A stretch of 64,000 nt of DNA from an uncultured bacterium (GTDB lineage: Bacteria; Oederibacteriota; PGYV01; CAWJRG01), in contig CAWJRG010000011.1 in assembly GCA_963845185.1 (NCBI GenBank), positions 96,001 to 160,000 of the forward strand, in the 5' to 3' direction. Of the stretch, positions 921 through 61,414 are shown piece after piece. The notes beneath the pieces are model-generated. The model searched no databases and was not told the DNA's origin. It saw nothing but the letters and a program-made list of their open reading frames with translations. Numbering within the stretch: position 1 is the first letter of the stretch; every line of letters starts with the position of its first letter. The translations under genes and the position numbers were made by a program.

Positions 921-969
921 AAAATATTACTCTTGCTTGCACCCGTTTTAAGCCTAGGATAAATGGTAC
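921..969. repeat. partial, degenerate copy D of the intergenic two-hairpin element
   Basis: 921-947 aaaatattactcttgcttgcacccgtt is identical to 61351-61377 in copy C; residual first hairpin GTACCATTT..AAACGGGTGC on minus strand. Confidence 0.75.
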
Positions 970-14701: not shown

Positions 14702-15349
14702 TTATTTCTTTTTTACGCTCTTTTTTATCATAAGCAGTCCGCCCTTTGCGCCCGGCACTGCTCCGCCTACAAGTATAAATTTATTTTCAGCGTCTATTTT
14801 TACCACCTTTAAATTCTGAACCGTAACATTTTCATTTCCCATCCTACCTGCCATTTTCTGGTTTTTAAATACTCTTGCAGGAAAAGTGCTCGAGCCTATG
14901 GAGCCCGGCGCCCTGTGCTGCATTGAGCCGTGGGAATCCGGTCCTCCTGCGAAATTCCATCTTTTAACAACTCCCTGGGTTCCTTTTCCTTTCGAAACCC
15001 CTGACACATCAACCCACTTTTGGTTTAAATCCTTGAAAACCTCAAGCGTCACCGCGTCACCTTGTTTATATTTGTCTAGTTCGGTCTTGTCTATTTTGAA
15101 TTCTTTTAAAACCTTTTTTAATGGCACATTTGCCTTGGTAAATATTCCCTTTATGGGCTTATTCACCCTTTTTGGTTTTTTGGCGTCGGTATTGCCAAGT
15201 AAAAGTGCGCTGTATCCGTGTTCCTCCTCGGTTTTTTTGCCCACGACAACGGAGTCCTCAACTTCGATTATTGTCACAGGCACGGCTTCGCCTTTCTCGT
15301 TAAAAATCTGCGTCATGCCGACTTTTTTTCCTAAAAATGCTGACAGCAC
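14702..15349 (-). CDS. rplC: 50S ribosomal protein L3
   Basis: GKKVGMTQIF..SKGKG.QG..HRAPGSIG; GTG start, SD AAGGAG. Confidence 0.99.
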   Translation of the reverse strand: MLSAFLGKKVGMTQIFNEKGEAVPVTIIEVEDSVVVGKKTEEEHGYSALLLGNTDAKKPKRVNKPIKGIFTKANVPLKKVLKEFKIDKTELDKYKQGDAVTLEVFKDLNQKWVDVSGVSKGKGTQGVVKRWNFAGGPDSHGSMQHRAPGSIGSSTFPARVFKNQKMAGRMGNENVTVQNLKVVKIDAENKFILVGGAVPGAKGGLLMIKKSVKKK

Positions 15350-15362
15350 CTTATTTCTCCTT

Positions 15363-15461
15363 AGAGTCCGTTGATTTTGCTAAGCGTCAACAGCGGCAGC
15401 AAAATCTTACGGAGTCTTATACCCGCTCAAGTCCGAGGCATACGCCGTGGACAAACGGTAT
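15363..15461. repeat. copy A of the intergenic two-hairpin structured element (rpsJ-rplC)
   Basis: Shares core tacccgctcaagtccgaggc and stem architecture with 36506-36608 and 61250-61414. Confidence 0.88.
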
Positions 15462-15465
15462 TTAT

Positions 15466-15777
15466 TTACAGTTTAATTTCGACGTCTATGCCCGCCGGTA
15501 AATCAAGATTCCTGAGTTTTTCAACAGTTTCATGGTTTGGTTCGACTATATCTATTATCCTTTTATGTATTCTCATCTCAAACTGTTCCCTTGATTTTTT
15601 ATCTACATGCACTGACCTTAAAATAGTGTATTTTTGTATTTTTGTAGGCAGAGGTATCGGGCCTGATACTCTCGCTCCGGTTTCTTTTACTTTTTTTATG
15701 ATATCAACCACCGACTTGTCAAGAAGTTTGTGGTCGTAAGCTTTTAATCTTATTCTTATTTTCTGCACATCTATCAT
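15466..15777 (-). CDS. rpsJ: 30S ribosomal protein S10
   Basis: [25 protein letters not shown]. Confidence 0.99.
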
Positions 15778-15801: not shown

Positions 15802-17004
15802 TTATTCAACTATATCCGTGACAACGCCGGAGCCCACGGTCTTTCCGCCTTCCCTTATTGCAAACCTTACTTCTTTCTCCATTGCTATCGGCGTTATCAG
15901 CTCCACGTCCATCAGCACATTGTCCCCGGGCATTACCATCTCTATCCCTGCCGGCAACTTTATGCTCCCTGTCACATCCGTTGTCCTGAAATAAAACTGC
16001 GGCCGGTAATTGTTAAAAAACGGCGTGTGCCTCCCGCCCTCTTCTTTTGTCAGTATGTATACTTTCCCTTTGAATTTCTTATGCGGCGTTATCGAACCTA
16101 TCTTTGATACTACCTGCCCTCTCTCTATATCCGTCTTCTCTATTCCCCTAAGCAACAACCCTACATTGTCTCCGGCTATACCTTCGTCCAGCAGTTTCCT
16201 GAACATCTCTATTCCTGTCACCACTGTCTTCTTCGTATCCTTTATCCCTACTATTTCAACTTCTTCGTTTAATTTTACTTTGCCCCTCTCTATCCTTCCT
16301 GTCGCTACTGTTCCCCTGCCGGTTATTGAAAATACATCCTCTATTGCCAAAAGAAACGGCTTGTCTATGTCCCTTTTCGGCTCTGGTATCTCTGTATCAA
16401 GCGCGTTTACAAGGTCTAATATCGGCTTCGACGCCTCTCCATTTGGATCCTGCAATGCCTTTATTGCCGATCCCCTTATCACTGTTATCTTGTCTCCGGG
16501 AAATTCATATTTCGTTAACAGCTCCCTTACCTCTACCTCTACCAGATCTAGTATCTCAGGGTCGTCTACTAAATCCACTTTATTTAAAAATACCACTATG
16601 TTATGCACTCCCACCTGCCTTGCCAGCAGTATATGCTCCCTTGTCTGCGGCATTGGCCCGTCTGCCGCGCTTACCACTAGTATCGCTCCGTCCATCTGCG
16701 CCGCTCCGGTTATCATGTTCTTTACGTAATCTGCGTGCCCGGGGCAATCTATGTGCGCGTAGTGCCTTTTATCTGTCGAATACTCAACGTGCGATGTCGC
16801 TATCGTCAATATCTTTGTCGCGTCCCTTCTTCCCTGTGATATTGACGCCTTTGCCACCTCATCGTACGGTATGTATGTCGCTAGTCCTTTGGCTGCCATT
16901 ACTGCTGTTATTGCCGCTGTCAGCGTCGTTTTTCCGTGGTCCACATGCCCTATCGTCCCCACGTTTATATGCGGTTTTGTCCTCTCAAATTTCTGCTTAC
17001 TCAT
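15802..17004 (-). CDS. tuf: elongation factor Tu with variant switch I region
   Basis: [28 protein letters not shown]. Confidence 0.99.
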
Positions 17005-17088
17005 CTCTTAACCTCCTGAATTTGTGTTATGCGGGAATCTAATTTGTCATTACTTATCATATACCACTTCCCACTTTTAACTTTTTAT

Positions 17089-30021: not shown

Positions 30022-30036
30022 ATTTCCCCTTTAATT

Positions 30037-30052
30037 GTAGAGACACGCCATG
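30037..30052. repeat. left half of REP-like palindrome plus target duplication CATG
   Basis: gtagagacacgc-catg; joins 31667-31682 to give the perfect 28-bp palindrome GTAGAGACACGCCATGGCGTGTCTCTAC. Confidence 0.88.
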
Positions 30053-31666
30053 GAGTCTGTCTCAAAACTCTTTTAAACGCCTTGCATTGCCTACACTTAT
30101 CGCGTTTTTTAGCCCCTATCTTTATTATTTCTCTTCTTTTCGATTTGTGGTTCTTTTCTTGTCAGGTTGCGAACCTTAATTTAACCTTACCTTCCCTCCA
30201 CAAGGCATACATTGTCTTTATGTTATGGGCGGCGCATATAAAAGACCATTGTGTTTTTACGCTTTCGATTCCTCTAACACTAAATCTTGTAAAACCAAGT
30301 ACGTTTTTTATACGTCCCAATAATGGCTCAACTATTGTTTTTCTCTTTCGAAGCTGTTCTTTCCAGTTATTGACCCTAGCTTCTTCTCTGTATATTGACA
30401 CTATCTCCTCATACTCATGCTTATTTGCTTCTATTATCCTTCCGGATTTTACCTTGCTGCATTCGTATTTATAAATACAATCCCTATGATCCCCGCATCG
30501 GTATATCATTGTCTCTTTTCCGTTTTTCTTCTTCCTTATACTGGTATATTCAAGCCTGCCATTTTTAGGACATACATATTCGTTTTTTTCTTTGTCGTAT
30601 TTAAAATGCGCTTTGCCATACGGCCTATCGCTGTCATCCTCCGGCAAGTTAACAATTATATTCCTTTTTTCTTCTTTGGCTTTTGCCAGTTCTTCCGGTG
30701 AATAATACCCTCCATCCGCAAGCGTTACTCCTGATTTTTGTCCGGTATTCGACTCTGCTTTTTCTATCATATCATTCAGCATGTGAGCATCCGATTCCTT
30801 GTTTGTCACATTCTCTGCCACAATTATCTGTTTCTTTGCGTCCACAACAACCTGTGAGTTATATGCCTGTTGCAGTCCTTTACCTCTTGTCATCATGAAC
30901 CGGCTGTCTCTATCTGTGGGGTTTTCAGTTGTTTTTCCTTCACTTTTCATACGTTCTATATGTTCTCTTATTACCTGACGCAGTTTCTCCTTTTCCTGCA
31001 ATTCTTTTGGCATTCCGCACTTACTTTTGCCCTCTTCATCGTCTTGTTCGTCATTTTTCTCAATTTCCACCATTATTTTGTCTATTTCTCTGTCTAATTC
31101 TTGTATTTTTTTATTCATGTCTTTTATTGTTTTGGTCTTTTCCTTATTTACATCTGCCTGTATTTTTGTGCCGTCCACGGCTTGAATTTCAAAACCAACC
31201 AAATTGTTGTTTGTTGCCACACGCACCGTCTCCTTCAGTAAAACCCTTATCTGCTCTTTATTTCCTTTAAAAAATCTCCATAGCGTATTATGGTCGGGAT
31301 GATTATTCCCGGTTATCCATATCATCCCCATTGAATCGTAAGTCATTTTTTCAACTTTTCTGCTGCTCTTTTTTCCTTCCAGTATGCCGTACATCCATGC
31401 CCCAAGTAAAAGATCTACAAAATATCCCGGTCTTCCGGTTTCTTCTTCCATTTTAAAACCCATCTCTTCAAGCGGTAATTCTTCTACGAATTCTACGACA
31501 AATCGAGCTAAATGATCTTTTGAAACCCAATCTTCTATTGCCGGTGGCAGTAGATACATTTGATTTCTATCGGCTCTTATCGTTGGCATTTGGTTTCTCC
31601 TTCGCTAAATTTTGAAACCATTATACCATTTATGTCAAAGAATTAAGAGGCTTTTGAGACAGACTC
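30053..31666 (-). mobile_element. IS1182-family insertion sequence, about 1.6 kb, intact
   Basis: Perfect 15-bp terminal IRs gagtctgtctcaaaa / ttttgagacagactc; flanking CATG direct repeat (or CCATGG if the IR is 1 bp shorter); single transposase. Confidence 0.93.
30162..31589 (-). CDS. IS1182-family DDE transposase
   Basis: DRNQ..LLPP.IEDW...HLARF, SSRKVE, PDHNT, AVDGTKI.A, ADGGY, RK.IVEP..G.IK. Confidence 0.95.
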   Translation of the reverse strand: MPTIRADRNQMYLLPPAIEDWVSKDHLARFVVEFVEELPLEEMGFKMEEETGRPGYFVDLLLGAWMYGILEGKKSSRKVEKMTYDSMGMIWITGNNHPDHNTLWRFFKGNKEQIRVLLKETVRVATNNNLVGFEIQAVDGTKIQADVNKEKTKTIKDMNKKIQELDREIDKIMVEIEKNDEQDDEEGKSKCGMPKELQEKEKLRQVIREHIERMKSEGKTTENPTDRDSRFMMTRGKGLQQAYNSQVVVDAKKQIIVAENVTNKESDAHMLNDMIEKAESNTGQKSGVTLADGGYYSPEELAKAKEEKRNIIVNLPEDDSDRPYGKAHFKYDKEKNEYVCPKNGRLEYTSIRKKKNGKETMIYRCGDHRDCIYKYECSKVKSGRIIEANKHEYEEIVSIYREEARVNNWKEQLRKRKTIVEPLLGRIKNVLGFTRFSVRGIESVKTQWSFICAAHNIKTMYALWREGKVKLRFAT

Positions 31667-31682
31667 CATGGCGTGTCTCTAC
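31667..31682. repeat. target duplication plus right half of REP-like palindrome
   Basis: catg-gcgtgtctctac. Confidence 0.88.
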
Positions 31683-31692
31683 CTTAATTTCA

Positions 31693-36491: not shown

Positions 36492-36505
36492 ATTCTGTTC
36501 TCCTT

Positions 36506-36608
36506 AGATTTCGTTTACTTTGCCAAGCCGTCAACAGGTGCAGGCAAAGTATTACGAAATCTTGTACCCGCTCAAGTCCGAGGCCGCCAGGCCGAGGACA
36601 AGCGGTGC
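36506..36608. repeat. copy B of the intergenic two-hairpin structured element (nuoK-nuoL)
   Basis: Stems agatttcgt/acgaaatct, tactttgcc/ggcaaagta, gtcc/ggac, ggcc/ggcc; core shared with copies A and C. Confidence 0.88.
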
Positions 36609-36659
36609 TTATTATTATTCAGTTTTTCAATCTAAGATCAAAAATCTAAAATGCACTAC

Positions 36660-61249: not shown

Positions 61250-61414
61250 AGCAAGAGTTTTTTTTGCAAGCCGTCGAAGGCAGTCAAACAATCCTGTGGA
61301 TTATTTGACGAATAGTTACAATAAGTTATAATTATAAAAGCTACCCAGCAAAAATATTACTCTTGCTTGCACCCGTTCAAGTCCGAGGCTGAAAAGCCAA
61401 AGACAAGTGGTGCA
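61250..61414. repeat. copy C (expanded) of the two-hairpin element; spans most of the hisG leader
   Basis: agcaagagt/actcttgct stem, core gcacccgttcaagtccgaggc, extra 12-bp hairpin gtcaaacaatcc/ggattatttgac in the loop. Confidence 0.85.

Follow-up and report, generated by a model that had tools for sequence, protein, structure and literature searches.

The window analysed here is a stretch of 64,000 nt (positions 96,001-160,000 of contig CAWJRG010000011.1) from a genome of 11 contigs and 3.50 Mb, with 42% G+C and a completeness of 99.38% (labelled G000 where needed). Every gene of the window is on the minus strand, and the element described in this work is therefore read as the reverse complement, that is, in the mRNA sense. 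Copy A (15363-15461, minus strand) occupies the space between the stop codon of rpsJ and the SD of rplC; copy B (36506-36608, minus strand) lies between nuoK and nuoL and is directly followed by the nuoL SD (36500-36505, minus strand); copy C (61250-61414, minus strand) is found upstream of hisG; and copy D, which is partial (921-969, minus strand), is found upstream of the SD of rplQ (909-914). Copies A, B and D are located inside operons. The SD of rplC (AAGGAG, 15357-15362) and its GTG start codon (15347-15349), likewise on the minus strand, are the gene's own and fall outside the repeat.

A covariance model (R1), built from 40 other copies in the same genome, matches the window at exactly these four places, with 108.1 bits for copy A (15362-15476), 111.7 bits for copy B (36505-36623), 57.0 bits for copy C and 23.1 bits (E 7e-4) for copy D. 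In copy C the loop of hairpin 2 is broken by a nested insert, a 64-nt two-hairpin repeat referred to here as module i (61283-61346, minus strand), and copy D retains a degenerate hairpin 1 together with the 5' half of hairpin 2. Folding places hairpin 1 of copy A at approximately 15419-15461 and hairpin 2 at approximately 15363-15418 (both minus strand), the latter with a single C.C mismatch in its outer stem, and the SD is unpaired in the minimum-free-energy folds of the window copies. The initial annotation of this DNA had described four copies in one orientation, with two hairpins each and an outer stem that in copies A-C ends close before the SD, and all of this is borne out: the copies are in the mRNA sense, the hairpins fold as drawn except for the mismatch in copy A, and in copies A-C 0-1 nt separate the outer stem from AAGGAG or GGGAGG. 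A stretch that had been called invariant, GCCUCGGACUUGARCGGGU, is identical in copies A-C, but genome-wide only GGACUKGARCGGGU and ACCNCUUGUCC are near-invariant, and the GCC tip varies.

Size and structure of the repeat family

The four copies first recognised, before rplC, nuoL, hisG and rplQ, are a much too low count for this genome. Matches to the covariance model at E<=0.01 number at least 149, which is a lower bound since 150 of 1318 candidates were scored, and an nhmmer profile finds 181 matches, 89 of them full length in one piece. The motif of hairpin 1 alone, with up to two mismatches, occurs 173 times. The copies are scattered over 8 contigs and include stand-alone and tandem forms, both missed initially. 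One perfect tandem array, at positions 916520-917191 of contig C9, consists of seven 100-nt units and an eighth, divergent unit, with TGTGATAAT upstream of the array and no SD between the units. A three-unit array was also seen in a relative (genome G014, C31:7617-7924).

The conserved stretch starts 3 nt before the ACC of hairpin 1 and stops with the outer stem of hairpin 2. It defines a unit of about 100 nt in which hairpin 1 is kept in sequence and hairpin 2 in shape only. Neither of its ends (RYACCGCTTG... and ...AAACGNNATCWW) is an inverted copy of the other. Mean pairwise identity among the copies is 0.68 and the median identity to the nearest copy is 0.88, with a neighbour at 0.95 or above for only 6 of 103 copies. 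Judged by these identities, the copies are old and not recent.

Pairing was assessed on an alignment of the 40 other copies of the genome, using a hand-drawn structure of 40 pairs. In this alignment 87.1% of the paired cells pair, compared with 73.4% in shuffles, and two-sided changes occur at 29 of the 40 pairs; the cells with such changes number 208, compared with 64.2 in shuffles, and none of 500 shuffles reaches 208. When the partner is slid by 1-3 columns, only 31-44% of the cells are paired. Similar values were obtained for relatives, where 29 copies from five genomes of two other families have 87.4% of cells paired and two-sided changes at 27 of the 40 pairs (0 of 500 shuffles), in an alignment fitted to the model, which favours structure. 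Within six subfamilies (66 copies), the rate per site of differences from the subfamily consensus is 0.073 where bases are paired and 0.235 where they are not, the paired rate being lowered slightly by the seven paired columns that define the subfamilies. Inside the subfamilies 105 of the 170 changed pairs still pair, 78 of them via a double change. Pairing has been maintained since the copies were amplified. The earlier proposal that the hairpin-2 stems vary and yet pair, as expected of a structure under selection, is likewise supported by the two-sided changes here and in the relatives.

Covarying stems, together with the conserved internal-loop nucleotides of hairpin 1 and the tandem unit-length arrays, could be taken to indicate a ligand-sensing riboswitch or a self-cleaving ribozyme common to many genes. 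However, a search of the 64-kb window against Rfam 15 gave no match at the gathering score, and a permissive scan of copy A returned only three matches, with E values of 1.9-8.4, to miRNA/sRNA models. The more than 100 genes downstream of the element are unrelated to each other; they include ribosomal protein, nuo and his genes and share no common class. In addition, there is no expression platform, and the SD is free in the predicted folds. We consider both the riboswitch and the ribozyme extremely unlikely and reject them, given the lack of an Rfam match, the unrelated genes and the free SD.

Ribosome-binding sites and empty sites

Genome-wide, 138 copies have an intact 3' end, and in 89 of them this end is followed by an SD-like motif within 18 nt, a start codon and an open reading frame of at least 50 codons. 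Among 20,000 random intergenic positions, 422 (2.1%) pass the same test, and the opposite end of the element, read outward, passes it in 0 of 159 cases. The distance from element to SD is 0-3 nt, and in 81 of the 89 passing copies the start codon lies 10-14 nt past the element. The link to ribosome-binding sites that had been proposed from the window copies is far above chance. As for the remaining 3' ends, 12 are followed by an SD-like motif but fail the reading frame rule, about 11 run straight into another copy, and the rest have unrelated sequence without an SD behind the element. Because tandem and orphan copies lack an SD, and because the conserved part ends at the outer stem, the SD belongs to the gene and not to the repeat.

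The genome has an extreme gene-strand bias: about 90% of crude open reading frames agree with the sign of the GC skew, which switches near 730 kb of contig C9 and near 770 kb of contig C10, so that gene orientation and replication orientation are confounded. The local skew is opposed by 18 of the 181 matches, and about nine of these, with a complete 3' end, still sit immediately ahead of the SD and ATG of a gene on the lagging strand, which shows that orientation follows the gene. The downstream genes display no enrichment for signal peptides (30/89 versus 652/2031, p 0.73).

For the window copies, the orthologous junctions of relatives provide empty sites. In 22 of 22 relatives of the same order the rplC SD comes almost straight after the stop codon of rpsJ, and a closer metagenomic relative (L077, covered over 2.6 kb, with an L3 that is 85% identical) has TAA|AAGGTG...GTG where the present genome has TAA-ATAA-[element]-AAGGAG. 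The SD of rplC is kept at the same distance in relatives without the element. The nuoK-nuoL junction carries no element in 21 of 21 relatives, and the model has no match at the rplQ loci of 23 of 23 or at the hisG loci of 21 of 21. Even at E<=1, a search of 88 orthologous loci totalling 314 kb (23 rplC, including L077, 21 nuoL, 23 rplQ and 21 hisG) finds no match in relatives and recovers only the C and D loci of this genome. Such comparisons show each window copy to be a derived insertion. Many of the relatives' contigs break just upstream of rpsJ, probably because of a second copy of tuf; in the present genome the tuf gene by copy A (window positions 15804-17016) has a second copy of about the same length and at least 90% identity at C1:18353-19564.

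Additional empty sites were sought within the genome itself, by searching junction sequences from which the element had been removed, and this gave clean comparisons of filled and empty sites for four paralogous pairs and one repeat family. In three of the pairs a good promoter precedes both members (TTGACA-17-TATAAT in one pair, TGTATAAT in two), and the element lies between a short native leader and the SD. None of the five filled/empty junctions has a target duplication, inverted ends are absent, and the 3' junctions carry a GGAGG-type or AAGG motif. In the fifth comparison the element lies 5' of GGGAGGGAG inside another repeat, of which at least 14 copies are empty and which starts no open reading frame; this suggests that an SD-like motif, and not a working gene start, marks the site. 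The junctions show insertion in the sense orientation, exactly at the 5' edge of the downstream gene's SD, with neither target duplication nor terminal inverted repeats. They also place the element within transcription units, downstream either of the stop codon that ends the preceding cistron or of the promoter that belongs to the gene itself.

The conserved blocks of the element can themselves be read as a promoter, with a -35 box (TTGAGC or TTGACC) and a -10 box (TAAnnT), in which case each copy would be a portable promoter driving the gene behind it. By eye, nearly all copies in the alignments of this genome and of the relatives have GGACTTGAGC and GTAAKATTTT, which can be taken as TTGAGC and TAAnnT with 15 nt of spacer between them, and the REP2 repeat of Neisseria is described as carrying a promoter (PMC3184786). 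Against this, the spacer is 15 nt long, a consensus scan finds no promoter inside copy B, and the last -10 position is a C in 15 of 103 copies, including copy B (pair 60-89). Moreover, good promoters that belong to the genes themselves are seen upstream of the insert in the paralog comparisons, three of the window copies (A, B and D) are located inside operons, and the pairing of hairpin 2 is left unexplained. We judge a portable promoter to be very unlikely.

Other repeats are found in close contact with the element. Module i, the insert of copy C, consists of GGGTAG...CTACCC and then a perfect 11-bp hairpin, is non-coding, and has 92 pattern matches on both strands, corresponding to about 46 copies genome-wide. 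It enters the same position of the hairpin-2 loop in several subfamilies; its other insertion places are the tip of hairpin 1 and the interval that separates the element from the SD. A dispersed repeat that occurs at C6:76476 onward and at no fewer than 14 other loci begins with GGGAGGGAGCATATTAGAG and contains a GGAGCA/TGCTCC hairpin; its start is SD-like, no open reading frame follows, and the main element lies just before it in five copies.

Relatives and described repeats

Matches to the model are present in 12 of 23 other genomes of the same order, with at least 1 to 18 per genome, and are lacking in the other 11; none of 17 genomes from other orders of the phylum has a match. Among 75 matches listed by a wide pattern scan of species genomes, seven loci are real by the model and the rest are chance. 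These seven score the same as the matches already found in relatives, and the scan thus gives no distribution beyond the order. In family f2, two or three of the four copies are SD-adjacent, as in the present genome. Hairpin 1 hardly varies in sequence from family to family, even though the L3 proteins of these families share only about 60% identity. Among the papers found on SD-adjacent repeats, no title or abstract describes the element, and among those found on 'Goldbacteria' none deals with repeats by its title or abstract. The element is an undescribed, lineage-restricted structured repeat.

Family f10, represented by four genomes, displays a different context. The copies in this family are not leaders and are mostly antisense to both neighbours, the two flanking open reading frames being on the opposite strand at most loci and the flanking genes being unrelated. 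A -10-like AT box precedes most copies at a fixed distance, and each of the 19 copies listed runs straight into an A-tract and a GC-rich, terminator-like hairpin. At one locus, which four genomes from two genera have in common, hairpin 2 shows compensating changes. These features raise the possibility of a multicopy small RNA or protein-binding RNA module, whose stand-alone form would be the original and whose leader copies would be a repeat-spread regulon acting through a factor that binds hairpin 1. The TGTGATAAT before the tandem array, the near-invariance of hairpin 1 between families and the excess of G.U over A.C pairs in the relatives (see below) point in the same direction. The consensus scan of f10, however, calls a terminator on the opposite strand only and no promoter before the element, several of the plus-strand T-tracts are weak, and promoter and terminator consensus scans do not rise above shuffles. 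In addition, there is no linked gene for a partner protein, and the flanking genes have nothing in common. We regard such a small RNA or RNA-module reading as rather unlikely.

Several classes of described repeats resemble the element in part. The ends of IS200/IS605 elements, their derivatives without genes (PATEs) and the REP/REPIN sequences of RAYT (Y1) transposases bear hairpins and a short motif, are orientation-specific, and lack both target duplications and inverted ends. The present element likewise has one orientation, a short fixed motif and, in five comparisons, no target duplication. It differs in that its two hairpins are unlike each other, in that its orientation follows the gene and not the replication strand, and in that Y1_Tnp and TnpB were not found in this 99.4% complete genome. 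The Y1 model (PF01797) had 0 matches, and as a control was positive in 6 of 14 genomes; TnpB also gave no match. With no Rfam match and no Y1/RAYT gene, the initial judgement that the element is not a known riboswitch, ribozyme, r-protein leader or REP sequence holds.

The Correia/NEMIS, BOX and ERIC repeats are small and non-coding, occupy 5' UTRs or intercistronic stretches and fold as part of the mRNA. They are MITE-like, with inverted ends and target duplications and at variable distances from the start codon, whereas the element has neither inverted ends nor target duplications and lies 0-3 nt from the SD. A MITE of a DDE transposon was rejected on the same grounds, as the ends are not inverted copies and the five junctions show no duplication. 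The attC sites of integrons, in which structure is conserved over sequence, form imperfect hairpins interrupted by small internal loops, closely precede the next gene and are not flanked by target duplications. The element, in contrast, is dispersed in core operons and not collected in one array, no R''/R' core sites were seen in it by eye, and no integrase is found above the cut-off: the best match to the integron integrase model (TIGR02249) reaches 86.2 bits against a cut-off of 265, and only generic tyrosine recombinases are matched. For want of an integrase, the integron reading was rejected as well.

Two further candidates among the genome's own enzymes were tried and dismissed. Five IS110 copies are present, but the element is not seen within 2.5 kb of any of them and is not related to their ends, and six matches to reverse transcriptase belong to a group II intron and not to the element. 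As Y1, TnpB and the integrase are absent and IS110 is unrelated, no mobilising enzyme can be named. The insertion sequences of the genome are IS5-like, DUF772-type, IS3, IS4-like and IS110. One of them, an IS5/IS1182-like insertion sequence of about 1.66 kb (DDE_Tnp_1_6, DDE_Tnp_1, DUF772) with about 15 copies in the genome, lies in the window at 30030-31690, with its open reading frame at 30162-31589 on the minus strand.

The closest described analogue is the REP2 repeat of Neisseria, along with the IR-A/IR-B repeats of Borrelia plasmids. REP2 is described as an intergenic repeat of 120-150 bp in about 26 copies, without terminal inverted repeats and with two internal stem-loops, placed just upstream of genes, and containing the promoter, RBS and ATG within the repeat; promoters and IHF sites are mentioned there for Correia repeats (PMC3184786). 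Compared with REP2 by description only, the present element also lacks inverted ends, has two internal stem-loops and lies directly upstream of genes. However, its SD and start codon are outside the unit, the gene's own promoter is upstream of it and its own promoter content is doubtful. It is also several times as abundant, with at least 149 copies, many of them inside operons, and has stand-alone and tandem forms.

Possible readings: leader, selfish DNA or insertion guided by the SD

The reading that we prefer, with only slightly more confidence than doubt, is that of a structured, non-autonomous repeat, restricted to one lineage (FCPU426-type), which is inserted next to SD-like motifs and transcribed together with the gene as its leader. 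The repeat would be copied by a site- and orientation-specific mechanism that leaves no target duplication and recognises the SD-like GGAGG motif; alternatively, this motif, being ubiquitous, might serve as microhomology. Once inserted, the element would be co-transcribed as a 5' leader or as an intercistronic spacer and, at the RNA level, would form a stable structural module flush with an exposed SD. Such a module may protect or process the 5' end, as a barrier by which the downstream message is made stable or uncoupled, may insulate the SD from upstream sequence, or may let a factor take hold by way of the conserved hairpin 1.

Several observations speak against this reading. No enzyme that could move the element was identified, the downstream genes have no class in common, and the f10 copies described above are not leaders. 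A further observation concerns the strand on which pairing is kept. In the 103 full-length copies, counted outside the P1b segment, the sense strand has 109 A.C cells (G.T on the complement) versus 45 G.U cells, which favours the complementary strand; by position, A.C occurs at 22 pairs and G.U at 9, and one U.G pair is fixed on the sense side. For 71 of the 103 copies the complement has the more stable fold. This excess of A.C in the sense strand and the stabler complement fit a constraint at the DNA level as well as one at the RNA level, or better. In the relatives the asymmetry is reversed, with G.U in 36 cells (17 of which are one fixed pair) versus A.C in 8. All of these are counts from mutually related copies and not independent events, and since the test gives contradictory answers in this genome and in the relatives, we do not use it to decide between RNA and DNA. 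The initial annotation had proposed either a small mobile element or a cis-acting RNA. The insertional nature is upheld by empty sites, nested repeats and tandem arrays, but for selection on the sense RNA the wobble counts are contradictory.

A strand preference of this kind is what might be expected if the element were purely selfish DNA, with hairpins that serve as single-strand or cruciform recognition sites for a recombinase targeting GGAGG-like sites, and with an RNA copy that has no function and is tolerated as long as the SD stays free. Several other results are in line with such an origin, namely the absence of both target duplications and inverted repeats, the insertion beside an SD-like motif that starts no gene, the site-specific nesting of a second repeat in the loops of the element, and the lack of class enrichment among the downstream genes. 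On the other hand, the wobble asymmetry is reversed in relatives, and copies that are old by their identities are still paired, many of them through double changes. Furthermore, one locus is kept with compensating changes in four genomes of two genera, and a candidate enzyme was not found in the genome, where Y1, TnpB, the integron integrase and IS110 were checked. Selfish DNA is therefore a possibility to be taken seriously, though in our view a doubtful one.

If the co-transcribed leader is the right reading, one structured sequence has been written before the ribosome-binding sites of a sizeable share of the genes of this organism, including at the rpsJ-rplC, nuoK-nuoL and rpoA-rplQ junctions, which are tight in all relatives examined. 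Landing in front of the SD is unusual and so far undescribed for a small mobile sequence. It raises the question of how an element that has no transposase, inverted ends or target duplication finds the 5' edge of the SD, and of how a stable hairpin, some 20 bp long and abutting the SD, affects mRNA stability, processing and translation initiation. A portable structural module that sits next to the SD may also be of use to designers of insulated expression cassettes.

A bolder variant of the leader reading, and one that we consider quite unlikely, is a mobile leader guided by the SD itself, either through anti-SD-like RNA pairing or through microhomology-templated copying between SDs. If this were true, a module that is a stand-alone small RNA in a sister family could be written before the RBS of any gene, and more than 100 genes, including ribosomal protein and respiratory operons, would have been placed under one RNA-level control.

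As a separate observation, the group II intron of the same genome homes to SD-spaced start codons. Its six near-identical copies (C11:61512-63461, C9:699923-701880, C9:811158-813108, C9:845001-846949, C10:383306-385241 and C10:831364-833311) are each in a different gene, and each starts with GTGCG one base past an SD-spaced ATG (...GGAGGNNNNNATGA|). The codons that follow the intron-bearing ATG resemble a lipoprotein signal peptide. Past domain V, the 3' end of the intron has an SD that belongs to the intron, together with an ATG whose frame is that of the 3' exon, so that the unspliced mRNA might still be translated.
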